DNA of 64,000 nucleotides, taken from Planktothrix sp. FACHB-1365. Lineage in GTDB: Bacteria > Cyanobacteriota > Cyanobacteriia > Cyanobacteriales > Microcoleaceae. Positions 23,380 to 41,718 of this stretch are shown here, piece by piece. The position numbers were made by a program, and so were the translations under genes. The stretch spans positions 93,075 through 157,074 of the forward strand of contig NZ_JACJSC010000008.1 in assembly GCF_014697575.1 (NCBI RefSeq), given 5' to 3'. Every line of letters starts with the position of its first letter. Position 1 is the first letter of the stretch. Under the pieces are notes generated by a model. That model made no database searches. It saw only the letters and a list, made by a program, of their open reading frames with translations, and was not told the origin of the DNA.

Positions 23380-23410
23380 CTCAGATTGGCTTAAGAAGCT
23401 AACTTCTACC

Positions 23411-23725
23411 CTATTCACCGAGATAGGACGTTAAAGTTTGATAATCTGAAAAATCTGAACAGTTAATAGCTTGTTCTGTTAACGCAATTTTGGGATTAAT
23501 GGTACATTTTAATTGATAATTTCCGGTAAAAAATTTACAGGTTGAACAAGGAATTTTATGTAATTCTTTAACGCTGGTTATTCCTTGTGTCAGTGTTCTA
23601 TAGGTACTCCAGATTAACGAAAAAACAAATAACCAAGCAACACTAAAGCAAACAATCTGCAATAGGATCGGTGAAATAAGATTAAAAAAATATAGAATTT
23701 GAGACATGGCAGTTAGGAATAACAA
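23411..23725 (-). CDS. Small hypothetical membrane protein with Cys-rich C-terminus
   Basis: 104 aa with two N-terminal TM helices, then CSTCKFF...C...C. No known family recognised. Confidence 0.3.
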   Translation of the reverse strand: MLFLTAMSQILYFFNLISPILLQIVCFSVAWLFVFSLIWSTYRTLTQGITSVKELHKIPCSTCKFFTGNYQLKCTINPKIALTEQAINCSDFSDYQTLTSYLGE

Positions 23726-24280
23726 AGAGGTAAGCTAAAGCTAATACTCATCTATTCTGAAGGGATGACTGTTTCCCCTCATCTAACTTCAGCATGATCT
23801 GTTTGTGAATTCGGTTTGTAAATTAAGCGATAAAACTCATCCATTGAAGAAGTCTCATCATTGATTACAACCGAAATTAACAAAATCTCTACCTTAAGTT
23901 AGAAAATGAATTGATCAGAAATCGGTAAAGTATTGATTACTTCTCTATGAAGTTAAGCTTGGGAATTGAAATTTTCTGGATTCATATTGCTAAATATCCC
24001 TTAACTCCTTTTTGGATTATTTAATGGGATTTTTAAGTAAAAAATGTCCTCTTTTGAGGGTTGAGATTGCCATCTTTATCGATAAAGTTGGTGATGAATT
24101 GTAGCGTTTCGTTTCAACGCTGAAACACAATTTCTCCAAAGTTGGGTGTTGCTAGTGCAGTCGGGTTTGATTTTTTTTCTATCCCTTTCTCTGATTCATG
24201 AATGGTTTTTTTAATATTAACCCGGATGCACTGGCTCATCTTTAGCAACTTGGATTCGCTCTGATGGAGTCAGTAAATAC

Positions 24281-26512
24281 ATGGCAGCGAAATTCCCAAA
24301 ATTTGATCAAGGTCTTGCTCAAGACCCAACCACTCGCCGAATTTGGTACGGGATTGCCACGGCCCATGATTTTGAAAGCCATGATGGCATGAACGAGGAA
24401 AATCTCTATCAAAAGATTTTTGCCTCTCATTTTGGTCATTTGGCGATTATTTTTTTATGGACATCCGGCAACCTGTTCCATGTCGCTTGGCAAGGAAATT
24501 TTGAACAGTGGATTCGAGATCCCCTGCACATTCGTCCCATTGCCCATGCCATCTGGGACCCCCAATTTGGCAAACCGGCAGTGGAAGCCTTCTCCCAAGC
24601 CGGAGCTATAAACCCCGTTAATATTGCCTATTCGGGCGTTTATCATTGGTGGTATACCATTGGGATGAGAACCAACGCCGAGCTTTATCAAGGCGCTGTT
24701 TTCCTCCTGCTTTTGGCGGCATTGTTTCTATTTGCGGGCTGGTTACACCTTCAACCCAAATATCGTCCGAGTTTGTCTTGGTTCAAAAATGCGGAGTCCC
24801 GCCTTAACCACCACTTAGCGGGTTTATTTGGGGTCAGTTGTCTAGCCTGGACAGGCCATTTAGTTCATGTTGCCATTCCTGAATCCCGTGGCCAGCACGT
24901 CGGATGGGATAACTTCTTGACCACGTTACCCCATCCGGCCGGACTCAAACCCTTCTTTACTGCAAATTGGGGGGTTTATGCCCAAAATCCTGATACGGCG
25001 CAGCACGTTTTTGGCTCATCGGACGGGGCAGGAACGGCGATTTTAACGTTTTTGGGTGGGTTTCATCCCCAAACTGAATCGTTATGGCTGACGGATATTG
25101 CTCATCACCATTTAGCGATCGCGGTGATCTTTATTATTGCGGGTCATATGTACCGAACCAACTTCGGCATTGGCCACAGTATTAAAGAGATGTTGAACTC
25201 GAAAGATCCGTTGTTTGGGGTTCCCACTGAAGGACAGTTCAACTTACCCCACCAAGGTTTGTATGATACCTATAACAACTCCCTGCATTTTCAGTTAGGA
25301 ATTCACCTGGCTGCGTTGGGGGTGGTGACATCGCTGGTGGCGCAGCATATGTATTCCATGCCACCCTATGCGTTTATCGCCAGGGATTATACAACCCAAT
25401 CGGCACTGTATACCCATCATCAATATATTGCTGGGTTCCTCATGGTCGGAGCCTTTGCCCATGCGGCTATCTTCTGGGTTCGAGACTATGACCCCGACCA
25501 AAACAAAGGCAACGTTTTAGATCGGGTTTTGAATCACAAAGAAGCGATTATTTCCCATTTAAGTTGGGTGTCTCTATTTTTGGGATTCCATACCCTGGGT
25601 ATATACGTTCACAATGATGTCGTCGTTGCCTTTGGGACACCGGAAAAGCAAATTTTGATTGAACCTGTATTTGCTCAGTTCATTCAAGCGGCTCATGGTA
25701 AAGCCCTTTATGCAATGGATGTGTTACTGGCGAACCCAGACAGTATTGCCCATACTGCTTGGCCAAATCATGGGAATGTTTGGCTACCCGGTTGGTTAGA
25801 TGCGATTAATTCCGGTAAGAATTCATTGTTTTTAACCATTGGCCCTGGGGACTTCTTAGTTCACCATGCGATCGCTTTGGGTCTACACACCACCACCTTA
25901 ATTTGTGTCAAAGGTGCGTTAGATGCCCGTGGCACTAAACTGATGCCTGATAAAAAAGACTTCGGTTTTACCTTCCCTTGTGATGGCCCTGGACGGGGGG
26001 GCACTTGTCAAACGTCGGCTTGGGAGCAATCGTTCTTCCTAGCAACTTTCTGGATGTTGAATACCCTCGGTTGGATCACGTTCTATTTCCACTGGAAACA
26101 TTTAGGGGTGTGGCAAGGAAACGTTGCTCAATTTAATGAAAGCTCAACCTATATTATGGGTTGGTTTCGGGATTACCTCTGGCTGTATTCGGCTCAGGTG
26201 ATCAATGGTTACAACCCCTACGGAACCAGTAACCTCTCGGTTTGGGCCTGGATGTTTCTGTTCGGACATTTGGTTTGGGCCACTGGGTTTATGTTCTTGA
26301 TCTCTTGGCGAGGCTATTGGCAAGAACTGATTGAAACGTTAGTTTGGGCCCATGAACGCACCCCTCTGGCGAACCTTGTGATCTGGAAAGACAAACCGGT
26401 TTCGCTGTCAATTGTTCAAGGATGGTTAACGGGTTTAGTTCACTTTACGGTGGGCTATATCCTCACCTATGCCGCGTTCCTACTGGCTTCAACGGCTGGA
26501 AAATTTGGCTGA
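24281..26512 (+). CDS. psaB: Photosystem I P700 chlorophyll a apoprotein A2 (PsaB), stand-alone and somewhat divergent copy
   Basis: The N-terminus [36 protein letters not shown] matches PsaB ([36 protein letters not shown]). The FX loop [19 protein letters not shown] is present. It is 743 aa and ends ...GKFG. Confidence 0.93.
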
Positions 26513-26540
26513 TCATCCCTGAAAGGGTGAATGATTAACT

Positions 26541-26573
26541 ATAGGGGTGACGACAGTTGCCCCTATGTTTTTG
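26541..26573 (+). terminator. Intrinsic terminator of psaB: ATAGGGG-(12 nt)-CCCCTAT then GTTTTTG
   Basis: 7-bp GC-rich stem plus T-tract about 30 nt after the psaB stop, read directly. Confidence 0.55.
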
Positions 26574-26633
26574 TGCTTCAGTATTAGAAATCAGGTTAGC
26601 TATTATAGGGATGAACCTTGTTGCAACACCACA

Positions 26634-26888
26634 ATGAGCATCAATCTCACCTCTGACCAAGAACAATTTATTCAAACTCAACTAGAATCTGGAAAATATC
26701 AAACCCCTGAACAAGTCATCTCAACTGCGTTGCGCCTACTGGATGAATGGCAAAGGGCTGAGGCAGAATGGGCTAAAGATGTGGCAGCTAAAATCGATGC
26801 GGCTGTATCCACCTCTGAAGAAAATCCTCCCCTTGATGGTGAAACTTTTATCAATGAGATTTTAGAACGGTTTAAGCCAACCCATTAG
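26634..26888 (+). CDS. ParD/CopG-like ribbon-helix-helix antitoxin (type II TA antitoxin), orphan
   Basis: MSINLTSDQEQFIQTQLESGKYQTPEQVISTALRLLDEW matches the ParD-family N-terminus pattern (..L.pe.e.Fi..qv.sGrY.sasEVvReaLRLLee). The start was moved downstream of the psaB terminator. No toxin ORF follows. Confidence 0.55.
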   Translation: MSINLTSDQEQFIQTQLESGKYQTPEQVISTALRLLDEWQRAEAEWAKDVAAKIDAAVSTSEENPPLDGETFINEILERFKPTH

Positions 26889-27109
26889 GATACAACGATG
26901 CTGCTTGCTAGTTACCAGGAGCGTCGCACAAGTCGCTCACTGGATCAAACTGCATTGTTGGATAGTGTATATTTATAATCTATAGAAGGATTTTAATGGC
27001 AACAGCGCAATGGACTATTCCCGACTGGTAAAACTCAGCCAAGAACTGTTAACCAGAACTGCCCTTCTGAGCTTAAGCTATTCGGCTCTAGTAAGGAGAA
27101 GTAATATCA

Positions 27110-30100
27110 ATGACCGTTTTTTATGTTTGTCTCACAGAGCAGTGTAGAATTGATGCTACTAAGTATGGTGTCATTCAAGATATTGAAAAGTTTGCTGAAA
27201 AGCTAAAAAAAGACCAAAGTACGAGAGGACTTGATCGATTTCCAAAACCCTATTGGAAGAAATCAATGGCAAGAGGTCGTATTGTTATTGAAGAGTATCC
27301 TCTGAGTGAAGACAAGATCATCCTCGGCCTGTCCCGATTTTTCATGCGAGGGTCTGATGATCGAGAATATGAGCCTTCTTATAAAGACACAGAATCTTTT
27401 TGGAATAAAAACAAGGTTTCTGGTTCTGAAATAGAAGCATTTCTTGACACCATAAAAAAAACACCAATTCCTCCCAAAAAACAGTTATCAGAAATTGAGA
27501 GTCAGTATCTTCAATCGATATCAAGTTCTTACTTGACTGATGAACCTGTATTCTTAGAAAGTTATGACTGGGTTGATCGTATATCTCAGGATTATATCAA
27601 ACATCATATTTCACGCTATTCCGATTTAAGCAAGAATATTGCATTTGAAGAATTTGCGCCTAATCAAGATTTGATCAAGCACGCAACAAATCCTAACATT
27701 CAAATTCTATATCGGTATTTTCCAGAACATAAGAGAATATTATTAATATCTCCCCTAAACAAAAATAAACAAGACGATGAAAAAGAGTTACGAGAGAAGT
27801 ATAAAGATATTTTAGTTAATTCACAAGTCGAACTTGACACAATTATCCGTTGGAGTCGGCGTGCCTACCCTTCGATCATTGTCTGTGATGAGGAAGTGTG
27901 GATACAGGTTCAGAACACTGCTGAGGCTAATTTAGCATTATCGCCTGAAGAAGAGAAAATTCTTGAAAAAATATCAAATCCTGCTCATGGAGAACCAAGA
28001 TATCCATTATTTATCAATGGACGACCAGGTAGTGCTAAATCAACTATCCTTCAGTATTTATTTAGTGAGCATTTAACTCACTATAAAGACGAGGCTGGCT
28101 CATTAGTCAATCCACCATTGTACTTGACTTACAGCACTCCACTTTTGGAGAAAGCTCGTTCATCTGTAAAAGATATTTTACTCTGTGGTGCAAAACATCT
28201 TGAGCATGGATCTAATTCCAAAGAGAATCCAAAATTGAAGCAGATATTAGATCAGAGTTTTCGCACTTTTCGTGACTTTTTGCGTGAGAAACTTCCTCAT
28301 GAAGTGAAGGCTGATTTTGTGGATGCTAAGTATATAAACTTTGAGCAGTTCCGCAAGGAGTGGGATAAGGCACGAGAAAAACTACCTAAATCTGAAGAGC
28401 AACGTAATATTAGTTCAGGGCTTGCATGGCACGCCATAAGAACCTTTATTAAGGGTATGCAAAACGAATTGGGTGCTGAAATCGATCCTGAATTTTACGA
28501 ATGTGAATTACCTCGCAATTTAAAATCCATCTCAGATAACACCTTTCAATTAATTTACGAGAAAATTTGGCAACGTTGGTATAAACCACTTTGCGGAAAA
28601 GAAGGCTTTTGGGATGACCAAGACTTAGCTCATGCAGTTTTAGAGTATTCAGCCAACGAATTATCACAATACCCGGCAGTGTTCTGTGATGAAGCTCAAG
28701 ATTTCACCAGCGTTGAACTTGAGTTGATTCAACGTTTATCTCTTTACTCTGATCGCCAAATACCTAGCCATCTTGCTAAGGATGTTCCGTTTGCCTTTGC
28801 AGGCGATCCTTTTCAAACTTTAAACCCCACAGGGTTCAACTGGACTGCAACACAGGCGAGTTTTCATAAAAACATTGTTCAGAAGTTCGACGATAGCAGT
28901 GGTTCTGCCAAATTAGAGTTTAATTATCAAGAACTATCCTTCAACTACCGTTCATCAGAACAAATTGTCAAGTTAGCTAATTTAATTCAACTTCTACGAG
29001 GGAAACTGCTAGATATTAAAGGCTTGCGTCCACAGCAAAGTTGGACAAGACAAGAAACAAGTAGTCCTGTATGGTTCCGAGCAGAAGATGCAGCTTGTAA
29101 AGACAAAATTCGAGAACAAAAGGAACTGATTATCATTATTCCTTGTGAAGAGAACGGTGAAGTGGAGTATATTAAAGGTGATCCTTTTCTGTCTAGCTTT
29201 GCGTTAGGGAATGATGAGAAGGTTTCAAGAAACATTTTAAGCCCAGCAAGAGCTAAAGGATTGGAGTATAAGCGTGTATTGCTATACAAGTTTGGTGAAG
29301 AAGCAAGAAAAAAAGTGCCAGAATTTCTGAAATATCTTAAAAATATTAATGATCCAAAACTTGAGCCTCCTGAGATTGAAGAGTGTTTGGCATGGGAGTA
29401 TTTTCTTAACCAGTTTTATGTTGCAGTAAGTCGCGCTCGCAAACGTTTGTTTATCGTAGATTCTGATCAGGCACTAGAAGAGTTCTGGAAATTATTTACA
29501 GATATCCAAAAACAACGTGAACTACTTGACTTATATCAAAGTATCAATAGTAATGAACAGTGGAGCCTTGAAAACATAGGTGGCATGATACAAGGTGACG
29601 AAGACAGCTGGTCAGCTGATCGTGATGATCCGTATAAGTTAGCTCAGAATTATGAGGCTCAAGGTCGTAGCTCAAGAGATCCCGATCTGCTAGATCTTGC
29701 TAGCTGGAACTATCATCTTGCTAACTGTCCTGACAAAGCCAAGCTTTGTCAAGCAGCCGCCTACGAATTTAGGGAACATTTTGCAAATGCAGGTAATTTA
29801 TTCAAAGAGTTAAAGCAAGCCAATGATGCTTGTCGGTGCTATTGGGCTGGAAAAGATGTAGATGCAATTATCGATTTAGTTAAGCAACTTCCTGAAATTG
29901 ATACAAACCCGCGCGTTACAGCAGCAAGAGTCATCAAACGAGATCAAAATACTAGGCAAGACATTGACAATCTGCTGACTGCTTTACAAAAGGTTGAACC
30001 TATAAGATCAGATGATTCCACTAAAATCGAAAGTAGCGCATGGCAGTGGTTTTTTAAGGAACTGATTATTAAAGTCGATCAGGCAATTACATCGAGTGGC

Positions 30101-31573
30101 GAAGCTCATCTTTTAGGCTGGAAACCGTTAATTGAAGGTATAGTCAAAACTTTAAGTCACCTCAATTTTTCCTCCAAAGATTATCCAGATATCGGCAAGT
30201 TGTACTTCTTGGTTGGAGAATTTCAAGAAGCTGTCACACATTGGGATAAATGTTCTGCCATTCAGAAACAGTCTCAGAAGTCACCAACGTGGCTTCTTCG
30301 ATCACGGGCTAAAATAGAAGGTTATCCAGACAATCTCCAATATTATCATCAACTGAAAGATGACAATGCTGTAATAGAGGCTTGGCGAAGTGCTGGGAGT
30401 CCTATTCCTAGAGAAACACCCGTCGTCAACAGAATTCTCGAATCTGCTGTAAAAATTGGTAATGTTGAGGCTATCCGATCCCTACTTCCTGTCTGCAATG
30501 ACATTGCAAAAGTAAGGGACTTGGTTAGGGATAGCAAGAATGAGGTACTCCGTGAACTGCGTGGTAGTATTTCTGTTGCTATTAACCAATGCTTGGAAGC
30601 CGATAGCGAATGGGAAGAAATTGTCAACTTTACCCAGACTTACGAGATTAGTCATTTGCTGATTGGAAAATCACGAAATATTCCATATAGTTCGCTCAAT
30701 GAGGAGTTGAAAAAAGCGAAAATTGAGTGGGATCAATCAATTGCTATTGCCGCTGCTGTGCGCGTGCTTGCCAGATCCGAGCGACTTGTTAAGGAGAATT
30801 TTAAGTCTCAACAAATCATTTCAGAATTCCTGAAGCAACATCTCATCATTGACAATAATAGTAGCCCAGAACAACACAAAATCATGCGGGAAGTTCATCA
30901 AATATTGAGTGTAGATGAGGTTGGGTCTGCTTTTGAAAGGGCATTCAAACTCACTTTTGCCTTTGAATATTACGAACAATGGTACAAGAGCAATAGTCCA
31001 GCCCAAGAACTTCACCTGATTTCTCCATCATCTAAGGATATCAATCTTGCCAAGCGACGCTGGATGAAATGCAAATATATCCTCGCTGAGACAGAACAAA
31101 ACGCACGAAGCCCTCAACTGAAAGAGGAAGCTCAAAAGATGGCTGATCAATTAAACGTGTCTATTGATGATGAGCCAAAATACTTAGAACTTCCTGACAT
31201 CACTGAGTTGAATATTCCAAGTTCTTCAGAAGCAATAACACCAAAAGCTTTGATTCTAACAAAAGATATGAACGAAGAACTAACCATTAAAGGCTTAAAT
31301 TTCATCGTGAAGACAGACCATATCCAGAAGCAGCGTATTTCTCTTAAACGAGTCGATAATGGGGATAATGTTTTGTTCAGTCTAAACAAGGTAAGCAGTG
31401 ATGATGTATCAGTCAAAGAGTTGGCAGAAACTCCTACACTAAAAGTTTGGGTAATTGAGGAATGGGATATTAACATTGAAAGTCAAACTAATACAGGTGA
31501 TTCTATCATTTCGTTAAAAACGAGTGAAGGCAACCCGATTATTCGTATTGAATTACCGAAAATATCAAACTGA
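27110..31573 (+). CDS. 1487-aa multidomain protein: ~270-aa N-terminal domain of unknown function, SF1 (UvrD/PcrA-like) helicase core, ~680-aa helical (TPR-like) C-terminal region
   Basis: Q-motif-like LALSPEEEKIL. Walker A LFINGRPGSAKSTIL. Motif II VFCDEAQDFTSVE. Motif VI-like YVAVSRARKRLFIVD. The codon usage (AGA/AGG, AAG, CTT/CTA, GGA) differs from neighbouring native genes (TTA, AAA, CGT/CGA, GGG/GGT). Confidence 0.8.
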   Translation: MTVFYVCLTEQCRIDATKYGVIQDIEKFAEKLKKDQSTRGLDRFPKPYWKKSMARGRIVIEEYPLSEDKIILGLSRFFMRGSDDREYEPSYKDTESFWNKNKVSGSEIEAFLDTIKKTPIPPKKQLSEIESQYLQSISSSYLTDEPVFLESYDWVDRISQDYIKHHISRYSDLSKNIAFEEFAPNQDLIKHATNPNIQILYRYFPEHKRILLISPLNKNKQDDEKELREKYKDILVNSQVELDTIIRWSRRAYPSIIVCDEEVWIQVQNTAEANLALSPEEEKILEKISNPAHGEPRYPLFINGRPGSAKSTILQYLFSEHLTHYKDEAGSLVNPPLYLTYSTPLLEKARSSVKDILLCGAKHLEHGSNSKENPKLKQILDQSFRTFRDFLREKLPHEVKADFVDAKYINFEQFRKEWDKAREKLPKSEEQRNISSGLAWHAIRTFIKGMQNELGAEIDPEFYECELPRNLKSISDNTFQLIYEKIWQRWYKPLCGKEGFWDDQDLAHAVLEYSANELSQYPAVFCDEAQDFTSVELELIQRLSLYSDRQIPSHLAKDVPFAFAGDPFQTLNPTGFNWTATQASFHKNIVQKFDDSSGSAKLEFNYQELSFNYRSSEQIVKLANLIQLLRGKLLDIKGLRPQQSWTRQETSSPVWFRAEDAACKDKIREQKELIIIIPCEENGEVEYIKGDPFLSSFALGNDEKVSRNILSPARAKGLEYKRVLLYKFGEEARKKVPEFLKYLKNINDPKLEPPEIEECLAWEYFLNQFYVAVSRARKRLFIVDSDQALEEFWKLFTDIQKQRELLDLYQSINSNEQWSLENIGGMIQGDEDSWSADRDDPYKLAQNYEAQGRSSRDPDLLDLASWNYHLANCPDKAKLCQAAAYEFREHFANAGNLFKELKQANDACRCYWAGKDVDAIIDLVKQLPEIDTNPRVTAARVIKRDQNTRQDIDNLLTALQKVEPIRSDDSTKIESSAWQWFFKELIIKVDQAITSSGEAHLLGWKPLIEGIVKTLSHLNFSSKDYPDIGKLYFLVGEFQEAVTHWDKCSAIQKQSQKSPTWLLRSRAKIEGYPDNLQYYHQLKDDNAVIEAWRSAGSPIPRETPVVNRILESAVKIGNVEAIRSLLPVCNDIAKVRDLVRDSKNEVLRELRGSISVAINQCLEADSEWEEIVNFTQTYEISHLLIGKSRNIPYSSLNEELKKAKIEWDQSIAIAAAVRVLARSERLVKENFKSQQIISEFLKQHLIIDNNSSPEQHKIMREVHQILSVDEVGSAFERAFKLTFAFEYYEQWYKSNSPAQELHLISPSSKDINLAKRRWMKCKYILAETEQNARSPQLKEEAQKMADQLNVSIDDEPKYLELPDITELNIPSSSEAITPKALILTKDMNEELTIKGLNFIVKTDHIQKQRISLKRVDNGDNVLFSLNKVSSDDVSVKELAETPTLKVWVIEEWDINIESQTNTGDSIISLKTSEGNPIIRIELPKISN

Positions 31574-31861
31574 TCTCAAATTAAAGAATGTGAAGCCTTC
31601 TATAAAAAGCTGCACCATTGCCTGCGATGAGCATACAGTGGTGGCAGCTAACTGATTGGGATCGGTCTATTTTCTGTGTTTGCAGGCTGTGTTATAGCAC
31701 TACGGAAAAAAGTAAACCAGTATTCTTCTCAAACCGATTGACCCAAACCTCAACACAACCGTGATCCCTATCACACAACTCTAATTCGTATCAGAAGATA
31801 GTGGATTTACAGTATTTAGGCCACAACCATGTTGACTGGAGAACGCAAGGCGGACAACCGG

Positions 31862-32173
31862 ATGGATAGTCCTGAAACCGCCAGTGGAGTTATTCGCCTC
31901 AAACCCCAACAATACATCCATATTCTCGATACCAATACCGGGGTCACTCGCTTAGAAGTTGGCCCCCAAACCATTACGCTTCGGGATCATGATCGCCTTG
32001 CCTTACGTCCAGAGTCCATGATCGTTGTCCCCCCTCGCTATTATTGCATCATTACTAATCCGGTTTTGCGAGATGAAGACGGTCAACCCTTGGCGGATCA
32101 ACATGGTCAAATTCGGCTCCGCTATCAAGCTAATTCCATGACGACATCAATTGTATGTCCTAACACTTCATAA
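31862..32173 (+). pseudogene. Truncated major-vault-protein (MVP)-like gene: only the N-terminal ~100 codons (first vault repeat) remain
   Basis: MDSPETASGVIRLKPQQYIHILDTNTGVTRLEVGPQTITLRDHDRLALRPESMIVVPPRYYCIITNPVLRDEDGQPLADQHGQIRLRYQ aligns with vertebrate MVP [86 protein letters not shown] (~45% identity, no gaps). Homology stops at codon ~100 (nt ~32128), exactly at the stop codon of the convergent HD-GYP gene. Confidence 0.6.
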
Positions 32174-33768
32174 ACTTTTCGTTGTTTAAAGAGTTCTAAA
32201 CAATCAGCATTAATTTTATTGTTGGCGGCTTCTTGTTGTAAGATTTTTAAAGCTGTTACAGTAGGTAATCCGCTTTTATAAGGGCGATCGCCGGCTGTTA
32301 GGGCATCATAAATATCTGCAATAGTAATAATTTGAGCTTGGATGGGAATTTCGGGGAATTTTAATCCCAAAGGATATCCGGTTCCATCCAGTTTTTCATG
32401 ATGTCGATAAGCAATTGTGGGAATATTTTTTAAGTCATTTGTCCAGGGAATTTGCTTTAAGAATTCATAAGTATAACTAACATGGGATTCAATCTTTTCT
32501 CGTTCTTCTGGGGTTAAATTTCCTCGTTCTACTAACAGTTGATTAATTTCTTCTGAAGTTAATAAAGGTTTTATTTGTCCATCTAAATCTCGATAGGTCA
32601 TTTGAGCCAGTTCCCGCAGATGGTTTAAGGGATCTTCTGCTAAAACTCTGGGTTCATTTGCTTCTAACAAAACGGCCCAATATTGGCTTAATTTAGCAAT
32701 TGATTCTGATAATTTTGTATCTAATTCTGGGATAGATTTACAAAATTGACATTCCGTTTCTGGGGATAATTTATGGGCGGAATGCTGCAACAAATGTTCG
32801 TATTTAGTTTGGGTACATTCTAATTCTAAGGTGCGTTGTGCTAAGGCAAATCGATGACGGATAACCTCTAATTGCAGCGAATAAAGTTTTTTCGGTTTGG
32901 TTAAAATTGCTTCAGGAACACCCACTTTCCCAAAATCATGTAATAATGCAGCATAGCGAAGTTCTTGAAGTTGACGTTCACTAAAACAAAAAGGTGCTAA
33001 GGAACCTGAATTAACCGTATTAACTTCTTGACTTAAACGAACTGCTAATTCTGCCACTCGTTCTGAGTGACCAAAGGTACAAGGATCACGAGCTTCAATC
33101 ACTTGTACAGATGTGCGAACAAACCCCTCAAATAGATGTTCAATACTTTCTTGTAAGTGATTTCGTTCAATGGAAATAGCGGCTTGGGAGGCGAGCGATC
33201 GCAAAATTCGCTCTTCCCAAATCGAATAAGGTTGGGTCATTTCTACTGCATTTTCAGCCGTAATTGCTACATCCGGGTTGATTTTGCGGTTAATGAGTTG
33301 TAGAACCCCAATCACTTCTCCTTTGCGATTTTGCATCGGAACCACTAATACCGAACGAGTCCGATAACTAATATTTTCATCAAAACTACGATCCAGTTGA
33401 TAGGGTTCATGTTCTGGTAAATTATAGGCATCGGGAATATTTAATGAAACGGATTTTAACGCCACATATCCAGCTAAACTTCGAGGAGTTAAAGGAATGG
33501 CAAATTCTTTAAAGGATAAATTGGGTAAAGACGCATTTTGGGCAACTTTAAACAGCAATTTGGGGTTGTTATCACTGTTATCGATGAGATAGACACTTCC
33601 CGCATCACTCCAAGTAATTTCCCGACTTTTTGTTAATATTAAATTCAGCAGGGTACTTAACTCTTGAGTTCCAGATAGAGCCGTACCAATATCAAGCAGT
33701 TTCTCAATGAGTTCGGCTTGCTCATCGAAGTTATGGAACAATTCGGGTTTCTCAAAAATTATTTTCAT
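32125..33768 (-). CDS. GAF-domain / HD-GYP-domain protein (probable cyclic-di-GMP phosphodiesterase)
   Basis: HD-GYP signature LLHDFGKVGVPEAIL ... HHEKLDGTGYPLGL. The N-terminal ~200 aa are GAF-like (LSGTQELSTLLNLIL...AGSVYLID...VPMQNRKGEVIGVLQLINR). Confidence 0.8.
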   Translation of the reverse strand: MKIIFEKPELFHNFDEQAELIEKLLDIGTALSGTQELSTLLNLILTKSREITWSDAGSVYLIDNSDNNPKLLFKVAQNASLPNLSFKEFAIPLTPRSLAGYVALKSVSLNIPDAYNLPEHEPYQLDRSFDENISYRTRSVLVVPMQNRKGEVIGVLQLINRKINPDVAITAENAVEMTQPYSIWEERILRSLASQAAISIERNHLQESIEHLFEGFVRTSVQVIEARDPCTFGHSERVAELAVRLSQEVNTVNSGSLAPFCFSERQLQELRYAALLHDFGKVGVPEAILTKPKKLYSLQLEVIRHRFALAQRTLELECTQTKYEHLLQHSAHKLSPETECQFCKSIPELDTKLSESIAKLSQYWAVLLEANEPRVLAEDPLNHLRELAQMTYRDLDGQIKPLLTSEEINQLLVERGNLTPEEREKIESHVSYTYEFLKQIPWTNDLKNIPTIAYRHHEKLDGTGYPLGLKFPEIPIQAQIITIADIYDALTAGDRPYKSGLPTVTALKILQQEAANNKINADCLELFKQRKVYEVLGHTIDVVMELA

Positions 33769-33868
33769 TCGACACTTTCACTCCACTTCCCTCGAACTAT
33801 TAATACGGTGAAATTTAGTTACTCTATCCTAAAGTTATTCAGAAAAAAAATCAGCACTGATGTTATGA

Positions 33869-34150
33869 TTAACCCAGTGCTGAAATTTGTTGAGCTAAAG
33901 CAAAATCTTTCTCGGTTAACCCCCCAGCGTCATGAGTTGTTAGACTAATGGTGACTTTATTATAAGAAATCTCTAAATCGGGGTGATGTCCAGCAACTTC
34001 TGAAGGTTCGACTAACTTGTTTACAAATTCAATCGCTTCAATAAAATTTTTAAATCGTTTGACTAATTTTAAATAGTTTCCCTCCACTGTCCAAGCTGGA
34101 ACTTGCTGGGAAAGGCGTTGAATTTCGCTATTACTGAGTCGTCCTACCAT
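33869..34150 (-). CDS. Pterin-4a-carbinolamine dehydratase (PCD/DCoH)
   Basis: 93 aa with W..E...L...F.F..F..A..F.N.V...AE...HHPD (EVAGHHPDLEISYNKVTISLTTHDAGGLT), the canonical PCD motif. Confidence 0.88.
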   Translation of the reverse strand: MVGRLSNSEIQRLSQQVPAWTVEGNYLKLVKRFKNFIEAIEFVNKLVEPSEVAGHHPDLEISYNKVTISLTTHDAGGLTEKDFALAQQISALG

Positions 34151-34644
34151 GGGCTACTTTAAAATGATAATAAATGTAGGATTAAAATAACTATCCGCTC
34201 TCACCCAGAGTTTGTGTTAGCAGTTGCCTTCACAATAGGGTAAGAGCGGTCTAGCGGGTCTCCTGGATTAGAACCTGACTGCCGGAAGATCATTTAGTAT
34301 GAGTCCGGTTATCTAGGTCAGCGAGTGTCCTGAATGAACACAAACTTTAGACTAGATGACAGCCCCGGCGCACAGTCGGCATTTTCCAATCCGGTGACCC
34401 ATGGGTTTACTACTTTCAATCATGGGCATCACCTCCTTGGCTCCCTAAACGGTTTAATGCGTTCAGTGTTTACGCTTTTTAAGATAACACAGGATTTTAA
34501 AATTGTGTGTTCCCCAGATGTTAAGAAAATCAAATATTTTACATCGATAAAATTAAGATTTTGCAATCTATCTACAGGAAGAGGGAACAGAAGGGAAAAG
34601 AAAATAGGGAATAGGGGGTGAGAAACAGTGATGAGTTATCTTGC

Positions 34645-35184
34645 TTAACCCTGTTGTTCCAACTCGGCTAAATTCAGGTTTTCATAACATTCAAAGGGTT
34701 GATGAATCCAAGGGTTATCCGCTAGATAATCAACAAAATAATCGGGAGTCATTACTGAACAACTTTTATACCAGAGAACGGCCGTTTTCATCTCTTGGAT
34801 TTGAGGATAACGAGATTGCAACCAACGGATAGATTCTTGTAAACTAATCCCAGAATCCACTAAATCATCCACTAATAAAACGTGACTTCCCAAGGTGTCC
34901 GTCGTCATGGTTAAGTGTTCAGCAATTTTGATCGCGCCTCGAACTTTTCCCCCTGGCCCATGATAGGATGATGTTGCTAAAATCGCCATCGGTTGTTCAA
35001 AAATCCGAGACAGAATATCCCCGACTCGTAACCCTCCCCTCGCTAAACAGACAATTTGATTAAATTGCCATTGAGACTGATAAATTTTGATGGCTAAGGT
35101 TTCAATTTTGTGGTGGTATTCCGTCGCTGAAATATACAAATCGCTCATACTGGGTAATGGTTCAACACACAAAGGATTGTTCAA
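34645..35184 (-). CDS. Phosphoribosyltransferase, xanthine-guanine PRTase (Gpt)-like
   Basis: PRPP-binding motif VLLVDDLVDSGISL. Overall parallel to E. coli Gpt (ISSY..., VIDDLVDTG, WIEQPW vs WIHQPF). Confidence 0.7.
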   Translation of the reverse strand: MNNPLCVEPLPSMSDLYISATEYHHKIETLAIKIYQSQWQFNQIVCLARGGLRVGDILSRIFEQPMAILATSSYHGPGGKVRGAIKIAEHLTMTTDTLGSHVLLVDDLVDSGISLQESIRWLQSRYPQIQEMKTAVLWYKSCSVMTPDYFVDYLADNPWIHQPFECYENLNLAELEQQG

Positions 35185-35198
35185 ATCATATCAAAGAC

Positions 35199-38100
35199 TT
35201 AGGACATTTTAGATAAACAGCGTTCTAAATAAATTTGAGCCACTTTATCCATCGGAAGATAATGTAGACATTCTTGGAATAATCTAGCAGCCTCGGAGTA
35301 ACGTTCTAAATAATATTGCATTAATCCATATTCAAAGGTGGTTTTTGTCCGAAGTTTTCCGGCTTTTATTTCCGGCAAATCTGAATCAAATACTTCATAT
35401 ACCGTTACCGCATCGGATTTTCCTTTGACTTTGACTCGATCAATAATCCGAATTGCATACTCGTTGGCATTTCCTAAAGCCATAAAAGTAGGATGGGTAA
35501 TTAATAAAGACACCCCATAATTTTTTGTTAAATTTTCAATGCGAGAAGCTACATTAACAGAATCACTAATCACTGTACTATCCAGTCGATTTTTACCCCC
35601 CACAATTCCTAACATTAATCCTCCGGTATTAATACCAATTCCAATTTTAATCGGGGGACGTTCGGGGCGTTGTCGGGTTTCATTATACTCATTCAGTCGG
35701 CTAATCATTGAAATCCCAGCCCGAACTGCATCATCAGCAGACCCGCCAAATAATGCCATAATTTCATCCCCAATATATTTATCAATAAAACCATAATTTT
35801 CGACGATGGCAGGTTCCATGCGACTTAAAAACGCATTAATAAATTTAAAATTATCTTCAGGAGTCATCCCTTCAGAAAGGCTGGTAAAGTCCCGAATATC
35901 AGCAAATAAAATCGACATTTCCTTTTGAACTGCCGCCCCTAACTGAACTTCTACAATACTTTCATAACCTAAAAAAGATAAAAATTCATGGGGAACGAAT
36001 CGCGCCGCCGCATCCGTTAGTTCAAATTCCGAATCTAACGCTTCATCTAAATGATGATTCAATTCTGAAAGTTTTGCCATAAATTGTAAGCGTTCTTCTT
36101 CGGCAGTTTTTCGTTCCGTAATATCAACGACAAACCCTTCATAATACAGTAATTCATTCTGATCATTAAAGACAGCCCGTGCATTTTCTGAAATCCAAAT
36201 AATGCTACCATCTTTGCGGTAGGCTTTAAATTCAAATCCTGAAACTTCCCCTTGTTGATCAATTAATTGTATAAAATCTAATCGGCGTTGAGAATCTACA
36301 TAAATTTGTTCTTCAACATTCATCACCGTTGACATTAAATCCCAAGGAGAATCATAACCTAAAATCTTCGCTAAGGCAGGATTTGCACTGATATAATGCC
36401 CCTCCCTGGTGGTTTGAAATAAGCCTTCACTGGCATTTTCAAATATACTGCGATATTTTTCTTCGGCTTGTCTTAAAGCCAGTTCTGTTTGCTGACGTTT
36501 TGTGATATCTTGAAACGCCAGAATCGCATACATTAAATCCCCCTCTTCATCATAAGTCGGTGTTACCCAATTTTCAAGCAATATCGTTTGTTCTCCTTGA
36601 TTCACTTCTAAAAGAAACGTGGTATCGGGTGTAGGATTATATAAATCACAATAAGGTGTTAATTGATCAAATTGATGCTGTTGACACCAATTAAGATAAG
36701 CTTGATAAATATTAGATAAAGCTTCACAAAATAATCCAGGAGTGACTTTAGTTTTGAGCAATTGTTGAGCTTTTTGATTGGTAAAATAGGGTTTACCCGT
36801 AGGGTCTAAAACAGCAACGCCAACCGGAATTCCTTCTAAGAATTGCGTCATCTGTTGTTCATTATTACGAACTTGAGAATAAAGTTTAGCATTATCAATG
36901 GAAATCGCGGCTTGAGAAAACAGAATTTTGAGGACTTCTAATCGTTCTGGAGTAAACACTGCGGTTGCTAAGTTATTTTCAAGGTATAGAATTCCAATCA
37001 ATTTTCCTCGATTTTGAATGGGAGTCATGAGGATTGATTTGGATTGATGTTCTATTAAATAAGGATCATTACGATACCGAGATTCTTGACGAGCATCTGC
37101 TAAAATTAGAAACTCTTGGGTTTGAATCACGGTATTCAGAATTAACAAAGGTAAAACATTACTCTGTTCTACAGAAACAGATTTTAATAAGGATTCAATC
37201 TCAATAGACCCTCCTTTCGTCGGGTTTAAACTGGCTATTGCTTCTATCGCTAATTTTCCCGATTTAGATAAAAGAATACAACATTTTTCGGCTCCTGCGT
37301 TTTCAATTACCACTTGAATTAATCGTTTCAAAAGTTGTTCTAAATCGATTTCTTGAGATAAAGCTTGAGAAGCTTTTGTTACCGTTGCTAAATCGAGAGC
37401 AGCCGAACCTCCATGACTACTAGAAATAATGGTTTCTGTCGTATTATTACTGATTGTTGTGCCTGTTGTGGGAATAACAAGTTGTGATAAAATAGAATGT
37501 AAAAGTTGAGGATAACGAGATTCTAAATCTTTGACTTTTGCCAAAGCACCCCAATGAGCATAACTATAATAGGCATCAATTAAATAAACCCTGGCTATTT
37601 TTTCTTTCCCCCAATCTAAATAAAATTTAGCCGCTAATTCCTCTGCTAACGCTTCTTCTTGAATAAATTGATAGGTTTTAGCCAAAGTAATCGCTTGTTC
37701 ATAGGCTTCAATGGCTTTAATATAATCTCCTTGAATGTGGTTAAATTCGGCCTCCACCAAATAAAATAGATGGGAAAAGTTCATCGGAGTCCCCTGAGAA
37801 AAAGCTTTTAATTTTTCTTGATTTTGAGTTACTTTTTCTAAAATTTTAACTTGGTCTTCTGGCGATAACTCCGGGTAGATTGCTAAATTAATTAAAGATT
37901 GATAACAATAAAAAAACGGTTGTAAAACAAAATAGGTGTCTTGGTTTAAATAGTATTCAGCTTGCTGAGACCATTCCTTCGCCTGCTGTAATTGATCTAA
38001 TCTATAATTCAGAACCATGAAATTTAAACTAAGTTCAAAAGAAATTTCCTGGGTCGAATATCCAATTTCAGTCGTTCCTATTGTGCCGTTTTCAGCATGA

Positions 38101-41100
38101 CCTGTAAAATTTAATGAGGTGTCTCCCTCTAATTTTCCATTTAAAATTTGCAAGCTTTGATAATAGGTGGTCAAAATTAATAGTTCTGACGGAGGTTTAA
38201 AATTTTGTAATTGATTTAAACACTGACTCAATTCAAACTCCAATTCAGAGACATCGTTTCCCGTGAAATAAGCGATTTCAAGATAAGCTTGAGCGAGACA
38301 ATAAGCTTCATCAATTTTCCCAGCTTCTTGAGCTTGTAAATAGCAAGTTTTGAGGGGAGATAAAACCTGCTTTAAGGAAGTTTTCCAAGGTTTAATAAAC
38401 CGATAAACCAGTTGTTTAACTTTGATAATTAATGCGGAATTTGCTTGTTTTTGCGATAATTCTAAAGCTAATTCTCCCATTTGATTCCCGAACTCAATTT
38501 CCCCTTGGGTACAAAGAATAAATCCAAAGACAGCATAGACAAAACTTGATAACGTTGTATTTCCTTGTTGATACGATAAATGAATCAGTTTTAAAACCCA
38601 AAATGGGAATTGTTCGGGAATTACCCGATAAGCGGAAGGAAAAGCAGAGGTTAAAATTGTAAATAAATTTACTAAATTAGTATCGGATAATTCCGGTAAA
38701 TCTAATAACGCTAAGGGTGTTCTTCCCCCTAAATCATTCATAAAATTATGCTTAAATTTTTGCCAACTTTCTTGACTAAAATTATCACCCCAGGTAAACC
38801 CTAATTGTTGACAAACAGCTAACGCAAGATTGACCGCATTGTCATCTTGATTTTGAATTCTATAAGCTTGAATCATTAACTCATAAATTCTGACTTTATG
38901 TCCTAATGTTTGAGCATTTTCTAAAACAATATTTCCCCACTTCTGTAAATTTTCCCAATCTTGACTAAGATAAGCAATTTCTGCTGCTTCTGTGTATAAT
39001 TCTAAGGTTAATTGATAGTCTCGTTCCCAACTCTCCGTTGTCAATAGCCCCAGACCAATTGCTAAATGTCCAATGGCTGTCGGATAGGCGGTGGCAATTT
39101 TGGCTTTTCGTCCGGCTATTAAATTAAATAAGGCTAATTGATCTCGTTCTTTTTGATCCTGAATTAAGCCGACTCCTAAATTAAGTTGATTAATGATATT
39201 TAATAAAACTTCGGTTGAAATTTTATTTAAAATCATCTTAATGGATTGATTAAAATATTGTTTTTTAATTTGATTTAAAAGGGAATTTCCGATTTTCAAA
39301 TGGGTCGCTTGTCGTTGATGAGTGGGAATTAAAAGATAAGCAGCTTGTTGAACCCGGTCATGAATAAATTGGTATTTATCAATACCGGGTTGTAACAACG
39401 GTAAGGTTTCATTCGGATCAAAGTGTGAAGGGTAAGATACTTCAGTTTCTAAGGAATAAAAGGGATAAATATCTCTAGCAATAACAATAAATTGAGCCTG
39501 TAAAGCAATTTCTAAAGCTTTTAATGTTTCTAAATAAGTTTTTTGAGTTGCGGTGGCTAAATCTACTGCATTAAATTGATTTCCTAAACAAGCCGCAATT
39601 TTTAAAATTTCTTGGGTGTTTGGCGGTAATTGTTGTAATTGATGAAGAATTAAATCTAAAATATTAGAGTTAATAGAACGGGTTTTAATTTGAGTTAAAT
39701 TACATTGCCAACCTCCGAATAAATTTCGATTTTTCAACGAAGATTGAGGCGGATTAAACCAAATTAGTTTTTCTGTATATAAGGATTGGAGAAATTGACG
39801 AACAAAAAAAGGATTTCCTTGAGTTTTTTGACTGACTAATTCTGCCAAAGGTTTAGCCCGGTCTAAGGAACAAACTAATGTTTCTGCTATTAGTTGATTA
39901 ATGGCAGAATCTTCTAAAGCATTTAAAGGAATTCGATGTAAGGGAATTCCTGAATTTTCTAAGGTTTCTAAGATTTTAATTAAAGGATGTGTTTCCCCGA
40001 TCTCGTCATCCCGATACGCTAAAATTAGCACTAAGGTTGGAGGTGTAGAATAAATATTTTGTTCAGGACTCATCAAAACCTGAATTAATCGTAAGGATTC
40101 AACATCAGCCCATTGTAAATCATCTAAAAAAATGACTAAGGGATGATGAGGTTGGGCAAAAGTTTGAATGAGCTTTTGAATTAAGCGATTAAACTGATTC
40201 AGGTCAATTTTGACCTCTAATTCAGTCAGGGAAGACTGTTGATTTAATAAAACTTTCAGTTCAGGAATAACAGCCATTAAAACCGGGGCTTGATCTCCGA
40301 GTCCATTTAAAAGTTTCTTTTTCCAAGCTTCTACCTGTTCCAAAGGTTCAGTTAACACTTGTTGAATTAATTGTTTAATTCCTTGTACCCACCCCCAGAA
40401 AGGCGTATTCGTTTTAAATTGATCAAATTTTCCGGTGATAAAATAACTGTGAATAAAGGTGACGCAAGGAGTTACGGGCAGAACTCCTGTTCGACAATAT
40501 GCCACGGTTTGATAGAATTCTTGAACGAGGGCGGACTTGCCTATTCCTGATTGACCTGTAATTACAATAATTTCTGATTGAGCCTTGTTTAAAATCGAGG
40601 TTAAACGCTTAATTTCTGGCTCTCGCCCATAAAATTTATTCGGAATAATAAATCGATCATTTAAGTCAATCGTCGCCAAAGGAAACGGAGGAATGTCCCC
40701 CAGTTTTTCCCATTGTTCTAAACAATTTTCTAAATCATAGCGCAGTCCTAATGGTGTTTGATAACGCTCGTCTGGATTTTTAGCCATCAATTTTAAGATA
40801 ATATTATTGAGCATTATCGGTAAGGTTGGTTTAATTTTGCTTAAAGGCTGAGGAAGCAGGGCTAAGTGAGCATGGATTAATTCTAGGGGATCGGAGGATG
40901 GAAACGGAAGTTTTCGAGTTAATAATTGATAAAGGGTTACTCCTAAAGAGTACAAATCTGTGCGATAATCAATACCCCAATGGGTTCGTCCGGTTTGTTC
41001 GGGAGACATATAAGCTAAAGTTCCTTCTAATCCTTGAGAATTAACAACTTCTTGATGGGAATGGTTGAGTTGAATAGAAATACTGAAGTCAATTAGTTGA

Positions 41101-41567
41101 ACCCTCAAAGTTTCCGGGTGAATTAAAATATTTTGCAGCTTAACATCTTTATGAATCACCCGATGTTGATACAATTGTTCTAAAATTTGAGTAATTTCAA
41201 TGGCAATTTTTAATAATTCACTGAGGGTTAGTTCTCGCTGTACCAAATAATCGGCTAGGGAAATATAGCCTTGATCAGCCATAATCAAGGCAAACCCATT
41301 ACAATAGGGTTCTAAATCCAGAATCGGAACAATACCGGATATATTAAGAGCTTTGGCGATGCGATATTGATTTCTAAATTCAATCAAAGAAGGTACGGTT
41401 GGATATTCACTGCGTAATAGTTTAATCACAACCGGGTAATTATCAGATAAACGAATCCCACGATAAACCAGTGTTCTCGAACCATTATAAATCGGGTTAA
41501 GAATCTGATAGCCAGGTAGGGTGATCATAGCGGGGTTTTTGTTTATCGAAGCGGGGAAGGGTGTCAT
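35199..41567 (-). CDS. 2122-aa multidomain signalling protein: Ser/Thr protein kinase - AAA/NB-ARC-like ATPase - TPR array - GAF (x2) - PAS - class III adenylate/guanylate cyclase
   Basis: Kinase: HKDVKLQNILI catalytic loop, LIDFSIS (DFG variant), GTLAYMSPEQ. P-loop VITGQSGIGKS with hhhhDD (FLDDLQWAD). Long helical TPR-like middle. PAS (QTTREGHYISANPALAKILGY). Cyclase FADIRDFTSLSE ... KYIGDEIMALFG ... VNVASRIE. Confidence 0.85.
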   Translation of the reverse strand: MTPFPASINKNPAMITLPGYQILNPIYNGSRTLVYRGIRLSDNYPVVIKLLRSEYPTVPSLIEFRNQYRIAKALNISGIVPILDLEPYCNGFALIMADQGYISLADYLVQRELTLSELLKIAIEITQILEQLYQHRVIHKDVKLQNILIHPETLRVQLIDFSISIQLNHSHQEVVNSQGLEGTLAYMSPEQTGRTHWGIDYRTDLYSLGVTLYQLLTRKLPFPSSDPLELIHAHLALLPQPLSKIKPTLPIMLNNIILKLMAKNPDERYQTPLGLRYDLENCLEQWEKLGDIPPFPLATIDLNDRFIIPNKFYGREPEIKRLTSILNKAQSEIIVITGQSGIGKSALVQEFYQTVAYCRTGVLPVTPCVTFIHSYFITGKFDQFKTNTPFWGWVQGIKQLIQQVLTEPLEQVEAWKKKLLNGLGDQAPVLMAVIPELKVLLNQQSSLTELEVKIDLNQFNRLIQKLIQTFAQPHHPLVIFLDDLQWADVESLRLIQVLMSPEQNIYSTPPTLVLILAYRDDEIGETHPLIKILETLENSGIPLHRIPLNALEDSAINQLIAETLVCSLDRAKPLAELVSQKTQGNPFFVRQFLQSLYTEKLIWFNPPQSSLKNRNLFGGWQCNLTQIKTRSINSNILDLILHQLQQLPPNTQEILKIAACLGNQFNAVDLATATQKTYLETLKALEIALQAQFIVIARDIYPFYSLETEVSYPSHFDPNETLPLLQPGIDKYQFIHDRVQQAAYLLIPTHQRQATHLKIGNSLLNQIKKQYFNQSIKMILNKISTEVLLNIINQLNLGVGLIQDQKERDQLALFNLIAGRKAKIATAYPTAIGHLAIGLGLLTTESWERDYQLTLELYTEAAEIAYLSQDWENLQKWGNIVLENAQTLGHKVRIYELMIQAYRIQNQDDNAVNLALAVCQQLGFTWGDNFSQESWQKFKHNFMNDLGGRTPLALLDLPELSDTNLVNLFTILTSAFPSAYRVIPEQFPFWVLKLIHLSYQQGNTTLSSFVYAVFGFILCTQGEIEFGNQMGELALELSQKQANSALIIKVKQLVYRFIKPWKTSLKQVLSPLKTCYLQAQEAGKIDEAYCLAQAYLEIAYFTGNDVSELEFELSQCLNQLQNFKPPSELLILTTYYQSLQILNGKLEGDTSLNFTGHAENGTIGTTEIGYSTQEISFELSLNFMVLNYRLDQLQQAKEWSQQAEYYLNQDTYFVLQPFFYCYQSLINLAIYPELSPEDQVKILEKVTQNQEKLKAFSQGTPMNFSHLFYLVEAEFNHIQGDYIKAIEAYEQAITLAKTYQFIQEEALAEELAAKFYLDWGKEKIARVYLIDAYYSYAHWGALAKVKDLESRYPQLLHSILSQLVIPTTGTTISNNTTETIISSSHGGSAALDLATVTKASQALSQEIDLEQLLKRLIQVVIENAGAEKCCILLSKSGKLAIEAIASLNPTKGGSIEIESLLKSVSVEQSNVLPLLILNTVIQTQEFLILADARQESRYRNDPYLIEHQSKSILMTPIQNRGKLIGILYLENNLATAVFTPERLEVLKILFSQAAISIDNAKLYSQVRNNEQQMTQFLEGIPVGVAVLDPTGKPYFTNQKAQQLLKTKVTPGLFCEALSNIYQAYLNWCQQHQFDQLTPYCDLYNPTPDTTFLLEVNQGEQTILLENWVTPTYDEEGDLMYAILAFQDITKRQQTELALRQAEEKYRSIFENASEGLFQTTREGHYISANPALAKILGYDSPWDLMSTVMNVEEQIYVDSQRRLDFIQLIDQQGEVSGFEFKAYRKDGSIIWISENARAVFNDQNELLYYEGFVVDITERKTAEEERLQFMAKLSELNHHLDEALDSEFELTDAAARFVPHEFLSFLGYESIVEVQLGAAVQKEMSILFADIRDFTSLSEGMTPEDNFKFINAFLSRMEPAIVENYGFIDKYIGDEIMALFGGSADDAVRAGISMISRLNEYNETRQRPERPPIKIGIGINTGGLMLGIVGGKNRLDSTVISDSVNVASRIENLTKNYGVSLLITHPTFMALGNANEYAIRIIDRVKVKGKSDAVTVYEVFDSDLPEIKAGKLRTKTTFEYGLMQYYLERYSEAARLFQECLHYLPMDKVAQIYLERCLSKMS

Positions 41568-41718
41568 CTGAAAATAGGACGTGTGGTGATTAATTCTTCA
41601 CTCCTTCACGTCCGAAAGGCAAGTTACGAGGCGGTTTGTTGGGTACGCGGTGGCGGGCGGGGGGGTAGCAAAGTACCAGAACGTACTTGCGTTCCAATTC
41701 TCGGTGTTCGAAATCATC

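Follow-up and report, generated by a model that had tools for sequence, protein, structure and literature searches.

Bacterial major vault protein (MVP) homologues were described by Daly et al. (2013; PMC3762200) in Lyngbya majuscula/Moorena, Oscillatoria acuminata and Microcoleus PCC 7113, in a paper that also noted their 'colicin uptake' annotation and discussed horizontal transfer. Homologues in the Oscillatoriales, Myxococcales and Cytophagales were later linked to gliding motility (Sokolskyi, 2019; bioRxiv 10.1101/872010), and bacterial homologues are mentioned again in a more recent preprint (bioRxiv 10.1101/2023.11.10.566534). None of these three sources assigns a function to the bacterial protein, and we found no report of a bacterial vault particle in the literature on these homologues. 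Full-architecture cyanobacterial MVPs are entered at NCBI as 'colicin uptake protein' or 'colicin transporter', a naming that hides the family from text searches, and at JGI as 'major vault protein' (P0031, P0040, P0054, P0128 and others).

The DNA considered here is a 64 kb window, by which we mean the whole stretch analysed, from the genome of Planktothrix sp. FACHB-1365. Three of its proteins, PsaB, 4a-hydroxytetrahydrobiopterin dehydratase and an ABC permease, match proteins of that strain on a 194,281-bp contig without a single difference; the 114-aa and 103-aa forms of the ORF discussed below and the HD-GYP protein had no exact match in the contig index. A sequence-only reading of the window had recognized a truncated MVP gene and held that MVP is found only sporadically in bacteria, which understates the distribution of the family: a pattern scan taking one genome per species yielded 57 loci, about 50 of them with open frames of 860-897 aa and mostly in filamentous cyanobacteria, and a protein search with full-length MVP returned 2475 clusters at E <= 1e-10. 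Some of the loci lie in metagenome-assembled genomes (MAGs) of Thiomargarita/Thiotrichaceae (L037, L049), Anaerolineales (L040), Oscillochloris (L044) and 'Actinomycetota' (L017), and the full-length MVPs of these non-cyanobacterial MAGs are 68-82% identical to the Planktothrix N-terminus; they are there either because genes moved horizontally between large filamentous bacteria or through misbinning. Clustering of all ORFs within 8 kb of MVP at the 57 loci revealed no conserved neighbour family; apart from MVP itself, recovered at 52 loci, it gave a promiscuous kinase/ATPase family, at 16 loci, and ORFs that lie antisense within the MVP gene. MVP is common in filamentous cyanobacteria as a gene standing on its own, and what had been taken for a decayed 'vault-like' locus is the loss of a single gene whose neighbours are not conserved.

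The ORF of interest lies on the + strand and runs from ATG 31829 (114 aa) or ATG 31862 (103 aa) to TAA 32171-32173. MVP was its sole significant match in a search of all PDB chains: residues 17-100 of the 114-aa form align without gaps with residues 7-90 of rat MVP (3gf5_A, E = 8.3e-25), with identity at 40 of the 84 aligned positions (47.6%), and further MVP chains match at about 1e-23 to 1e-24. Pfam Vault_2 scores 48.4 bits on the same ORF (E = 1.3e-12), well above its curated threshold of 23.6, and the likeness to the MVP N-terminus that had been proposed from the letters alone is thus borne out by searches of both profiles and PDB chains. The Vault_2 match spans only positions 1-35 of the 60 in the profile, and the gene is therefore cut in the middle of repeat 2, not after the first vault repeat as had been supposed; in the intact MVP of a related Oscillatoriales MAG (L001) Vault_2 corresponds to residues 53-112, numbered from the MD(N/S)PE methionine.

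The homology to MVP stops at nt 32125, which is residue 88 from the MD(N/S)PE methionine and residue 99 from ATG 31829. The MVP remnant at 31829..32125 (+) thus comprises codons 1-99 of 872, with repeat R1 and about three-fifths of R2, and is followed at 32126..32173 (+) by a new tail of 15 codons (QANSMTTSIVCPNTS) and a TAA. This tail is antisense to the last codons of a convergent HD-GYP gene, and instead of MVP it aligns with the 3' end of that gene in L001, L071 (P. tepida) and L072 (P. pseudagardhii). Of the 100 codons originally ascribed to MVP, then, 88 (99 from the conserved upstream ATG) can be kept, and the last 15 of the ORF have to be given up as antisense HD-GYP sequence. R1 and R2 remain recognizable by sequence, the latter through a partial Vault_2 match. 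The remnant lacks the nine-repeat array (Pfam Vault, Vault_4, Vault_3) that intact orthologues have in full, nor does the window encode the shoulder domain (PF11978) or the C-terminal coiled coil of the cap helix. A tblastn search of the 64 kb window with the 861-aa L001 MVP recovered residues 1-88 only, the next match having E = 0.78, and no missing 3' portion was found within the window.

The nature of the ORF becomes clear from comparison with the complete genomes of P. tepida PCC 9214 (L071; LR882970.1) and P. pseudagardhii (L072; LR882967.1), which share 94-96% DNA identity with the window over the locus, and with the more distant L001 (~87% DNA identity). The order in both complete genomes is FAD monooxygenase, 102-aa ORF, psaB, ParD-like gene, a variable gene, MVP and HD-GYP gene, with pterin dehydratase, phosphoribosyltransferase and large kinase/cyclase genes further along, and the window has the same gene order. 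Between the matching upstream genes and the convergent HD-GYP gene, at exactly the position of our ORF, both species carry an intact MVP gene of 872 codons whose product has the Pfam set Vault_2, Vault, Vault_4, Vault_3 and MVP_shoulder, and L001 has an intact 861-aa MVP (shoulder at residues 533-650) at the same position. The ORF, by virtue of this shared position, is orthologous to MVP. Its protein is 100% identical to residues 1-99 of the P. tepida and P. pseudagardhii MVPs, and the stump differs from these intact orthologues at 8 nucleotides, all of them synonymous. A further candidate for a close relative, L062, was rejected as such; it is a third lineage (~85% DNA identity) with an intact MVP allele whose protein is 91% identical to that of L001. 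The contig of L063 ends 2 nt beyond the HD-GYP stop codon.

One might ask whether the similarity to MVP arose by chance or through a shared small fold, the ORF being in truth part of another gene. Nothing speaks for this, and E = 8e-25 to MVP structures together with complete protein identity to the start of a full-architecture MVP in a sister species leaves it a negligible probability; membership of a non-MVP gene is refuted by the structure matches and the sister-species synteny.

Relative to P. tepida and P. pseudagardhii, 2442 bp are missing from the window. The segments 31713-32125 and 32121-44111 match either side of the gap, the former being 96.6% identical to the P. tepida 5' flank and first 99 MVP codons, and the same picture is obtained with L001 as the reference. 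The missing stretch runs from MVP codon 100 through codon 872 and the stop codon into the spacer, of whose 125 bases it takes 120, so that the proposed deletion of about 750 codons up to the convergent HD-GYP gene is upheld by synteny, with an actual loss of 773. The ORF thus carries a definable truncating mutation with mapped end points. Base-by-base comparison with the deletion flanks in L071, L072 and L001 places the junction at 32121..32125. In P. tepida the pentanucleotide GCTAT is present at both end points, once in MVP codons 98-99 and once as the last five spacer bases abutting the HD-GYP stop codon. The junction in the window reads CGCTA-TCA, one T shorter than a simple GCTAT-mediated join would give; either a one-base microhomology may have been used, or the ancestral spacer may have been one T shorter.

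The deletion spared the neighbour. The GAF + HD-GYP (HD_5) gene at 32125..33768 on the - strand is intact (547 aa; Pfam HD_5 2.6e-36, HD 2.5e-15, GAF 7.7e-10), and is of the c-di-GMP phosphodiesterase type. It equals its P. tepida and P. pseudagardhii orthologues in length, shares its last codons and TGA stop with P. tepida, and matches L001 in its C-terminus (...VMELA). The stop codon, at 32125-32127, now touches the MVP remnant, and the earlier placing of the end of homology at this codon is correct to the base; the convergent stump and HD-GYP ORFs overlap by 49 nt. L001 alone would suggest that TAA gave way to TGA at this stop following the deletion, an idea dropped because P. tepida already has TGA.

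Since the window comes from a draft assembly and the internal repeats of MVP could mislead an assembler, an artefact of assembly or binning, in a real genome with an intact MVP at this site, has to be weighed. The junction recurs base for base, together with an identical tail, in L058, a contig from another sequencing run (Logan SRR24300470) that was assembled independently and is 97.3% identical to the window; the 76-aa protein encoded there (P0002) ends ...QIRLRYQANSMTTSIVCPKTS. This second occurrence excludes an assembly artefact. Both sides of the junction, MVP codon 99 and the HD-GYP stop codon, are moreover non-repeated sequence, and the flanking synteny is otherwise perfect, and we therefore attach very little probability to an artefactual origin of any kind. 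When metagenome contigs were scanned for CGNTAYCAAGCTAATTCCAT, the sequence across the junction, two came up, both chance matches unrelated to the locus, and L058 is therefore the only other junction carrier found.

The MVP stump in L058 is more decayed than that in the window. It lacks the equivalent of window 31756-31899, a further 144 bp deletion between direct repeats CAAACC(T/C)CAAC, which removes both ATGs and the first codons, and an in-frame TGA lies just upstream; the stump of that strain is no longer translatable from its own start. It also carries an I-to-T substitution where the homologues inspected have a hydrophobic residue. The shared junction and the further decay of L058, with its start codon gone, lead us to read the ORF as a recent pseudogene. 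We consider it very probable that the ORF is a pseudogene, the 5' stump of a Planktothrix MVP gene left behind by a deletion of ~2.44 kb.

A single illegitimate deletion of about 2.44 kb, mediated by short repeats, would have occurred in the FACHB-1365 lineage and joined MVP codon 99 to the base adjoining the convergent HD-GYP stop codon. Lost with it would be part of R2 and the repeats up to R9, then the shoulder and the coiled coil of the cap helix, and finally the stop codon together with the spacer and the terminator hairpin that this contains; the product, if translated, would consist of R1, a broken R2 and 15 unrelated residues. Subunit association depends on the shoulder and cap-helix coiled coil, as is established from the structure of the rat vault and from two-hybrid experiments cited in PMC3762200 (Daly et al., 2013). 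A stump product without these subunit-joining parts would probably be unable to form a vault-type shell.

The deletion is probably recent, as the stump has kept the amino-acid sequence of the intact orthologues and the 5' flank is nearly unchanged. That all 8 differences in the stump are synonymous means either that the deletion is young relative to the ~3-5% species divergence or that the stump is still constrained. A truncated gene that still works might encode a small selected protein, R1 plus the tail serving for example as a binding module, or its transcript might regulate the HD-GYP gene in antisense. The ORF and its start codon are intact, the stump has 0 non-synonymous against 8 synonymous differences from P. 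tepida, and the two deletion carriers also differ mainly at synonymous sites: window 31900-32125 and L058 1159-1384 have 9 differing sites, 7 synonymous and 2 non-synonymous. With P. tepida as the outgroup, the changes since the deletion amount to 2 synonymous and 0 non-synonymous in the window and 5 synonymous and 2 non-synonymous in L058. Neutral sequence would be expected to have a synonymous fraction of 0.24-0.27, and an excess of this size (binomial P ~0.001-0.002, n = 9; P ~0.002 for 7 against 2) is unexpected for dead sequence, although the sample is small. In the stump, six of the seven changes specific to L058 have produced a G, and in the adjoining 221 bp of the HD-GYP gene only 3 sites differ between the window and L058.

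Set against a working gene is the fate of L058, the only other carrier, which has lost the start codon and 12 codons, has an upstream in-frame stop and has acquired the I-to-T change. Repeat 2 is cut at position 35 of 60 in the profile, which leaves part of the product unable to adopt its native fold. No more than 9 sites underlie the synonymous excess, and recombination with intact alleles could cause the same pattern; it is a plausible source because the locus is mosaic elsewhere. In L059 the MVP part (1-358) is 99.4% identical to L001 and the HD-GYP/pterin dehydratase part (346-2726) ~85%, which seems to indicate recombination or transfer of MVP alleles between lineages. Nor are the other short database MVP ORFs that were inspected examples of a conserved short form; they are unrelated truncations. 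No conserved MVP-N-terminal family emerged from P0001, P0016-P0019, L056 and L057, each of which has a different break point or fusion, the short entries P0003-P0005 and P0009 continue in normal MVP sequence, and the short form of the window is common only to L058, which belongs to the same lineage. Continued function of the truncated gene is thus unlikely in our view, and a pseudogene remains the better account of the ORF.

The region upstream of the stump bears on the same question. The retained 5' flank of MVP at 31713..31828 (+) begins to match P. tepida and P. pseudagardhii at 31713/31721, and over the ~90 bp next to the ATG the window and these two species hardly differ. It is presumably the promoter and leader region; no sigma-70 consensus promoter was found on the + strand, and the promoter itself is therefore placed here by inference. 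Within the flank, 55 bp upstream of the MVP ATG, is a CRP-type palindrome, GTGATCCCTATCAC (31761-31774), which in its extended form, cGTGATCCCTATCACa, has 9 of 10 matches to TGTGA-N6-TCACA and is also present upstream of MVP in L071 and L072 (reverse-complement coordinate 5444), L001 and L062. The core GTGA-N6-TCAC occurs once in the 64 kb window and once in each 20 kb Planktothrix locus. Of 56 other loci, 5 have the exact core in the 300 bp upstream of MVP, against 12 copies in the 927 kb that served as background, an enrichment of about 23-fold (Poisson 3e-6) among loci that are not independent of one another. Some Oscillatoriales may, on this evidence, place MVP under the control of a cAMP-receptor-type regulator.

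The near-unchanged flank with its conserved palindrome can be counted in favour of a stump that still works, as can the state of the spacer. In L001 the spacer contains a terminator-like hairpin (9 bp stem with 6 G-C pairs, and a T run), and in P. tepida one can be read directly from the sequence as CCCACAC...GTGTGGG followed by TATTTTAT. No terminator site was found between the stump and HD-GYP ORFs in the window, and the strand downstream of the HD-GYP stop codon, when folded, has no unusual structure (z = -0.09) and no evident replacement terminator. Convergent transcripts of the two would therefore overlap by at least 49 nt, and transcription through the stump could possibly run on antisense to the HD-GYP gene. 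In its most developed form this idea has the stump under purifying selection and the CRP-site flank driving either a stand-alone module or a read-through antisense brake on the HD-GYP gene, which we regard as improbable, a little more so than continued function in general.

The composition of the locus is not what had been proposed. The fragment was said to have the same foreign codon usage as the upstream helicase gene, but its GC content is 49.6% and its GC3 44%, against 38.6% and 32% for the helicase gene, whose GC content equals the window mean of 38.6% and which is not compositionally foreign. The HD-GYP gene has 37.6% GC and 26% GC3, and its GC3 is 26-27% over the loci compared (L001, L071 and the window). 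A similar excess is seen in the intact genes, with 50% GC in MVP against 39% in the host for L001 (10001-12586) and 49% against 40% for P. tepida (L071 12153-14771). High GC, some 10 points above the host, is a property of MVP itself in this clade, and fits either a foreign origin or strong amino-acid constraint.

The helicase gene belongs to a strain-variable slot at 26896..31712 (+) that is not part of the MVP gene and has no counterpart in L071 and L072, where other genes are found. In the window this slot holds a 1487-aa UvrD/GajB-like helicase gene (27110-31573) with weak Pfam helicase matches and GajB as the best PADLOC match (2.1e-9). The slot of L058 (2-1015) has a NERD+UvrD gene (PADLOC C3a187, 2.9e-36), that of P. 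pseudagardhii (L072 15018-16535) an AriA/PtuA-like AAA ATPase gene (3.5e-27), and that of P. tepida (L071 15043-16281) a gene for a 412-aa protein without a PADLOC match. With a different gene in each of four related strains, the slot between the ParD-like gene and MVP looks like a hot spot for defence genes. Comparison with L001 had suggested that window 23392-31756 as a whole was an inserted island; this was rejected, as P. tepida and P. pseudagardhii show that psaB and the ParD-like gene belong natively to the genus, with variation confined to 26896-31712. Neither flanking repeats nor tRNA genes were found for the supposed island or slot upstream of MVP. The psaB gene at 24281-26512 (+) is full-length (743 aa; PsaA_PsaB E = 0) and stands alone, with no psaA-like sequence anywhere in the 64 kb window, and its stretch has ~47-50% GC against 38.6% for the window. 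It is kept at this site in P. tepida, where it is a second copy ('apoprotein A2 2'), and in P. pseudagardhii, and is absent from L001.

Damage to MVP is by no means confined to this lineage. An in-frame loss of residues ~130-816 has occurred in L059 (JGI 3300045993) at a 12/13 nt repeat, GTTACG(A/T)GCGATC; residue 60 is joined to residue 361 in L057; L056 is a multi-deletion relic; and MVP is interrupted in L002, frameshifted in L045 (possibly a sequencing error), truncated in Moorena sp. SIO1G6 (P0001) and independently damaged in P0017-P0019. The recurrence of such deletions, independently, in other cyanobacteria suggests that MVP can be dispensed with in many conditions. FACHB-1365 is thus a candidate natural MVP knock-out with ~95% DNA identity to the MVP-positive P. 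tepida PCC 9214 and P. pseudagardhii, and its comparison with these sister species would offer a cheap first test of the role of bacterial MVP, whether in particles, gliding, stress or phage sensitivity.

In summary, the stump can be set beside three known systems. Among the cyanobacterial MVPs it resembles those of Moorena producens 3L (F4Y3B4), Oscillatoria acuminata (K9TKX8) and Allocoleopsis franciscana (Microcoleus sp. PCC 7113; K9WB38), with 69-82% identity over 88 N-terminal residues, but it retains only 99 of ~872 codons, has neither shoulder domain nor coiled coil, and has lost 7.4 of the 9 repeats. The resemblance to eukaryotic MVP (rat and human; PDB 4V60, 3GF5, 2QZV) is gapless at 47.6% over 84 residues of R1-R2, and the intact Planktothrix orthologue and the eukaryotic protein share one Pfam architecture, although the bacterial proteins are not known to have partners and no TEP1, vPARP or vault-RNA-like gene was found beside the bacterial MVP loci. 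From ordinary bacterial deletion pseudogenes the stump differs only in its post-deletion synonymous excess, seen in a small sample, and it is otherwise like them in the 5 nt repeat at its end points, the sparing of the neighbour up to its stop codon, the extension of the ORF into unrelated sequence and the further decay in a sister strain. The cyanobacterial MVP family has been in the literature since 2013, and the Planktothrix stump is a truncated orthologue of its members, most likely an ordinary deletion pseudogene.
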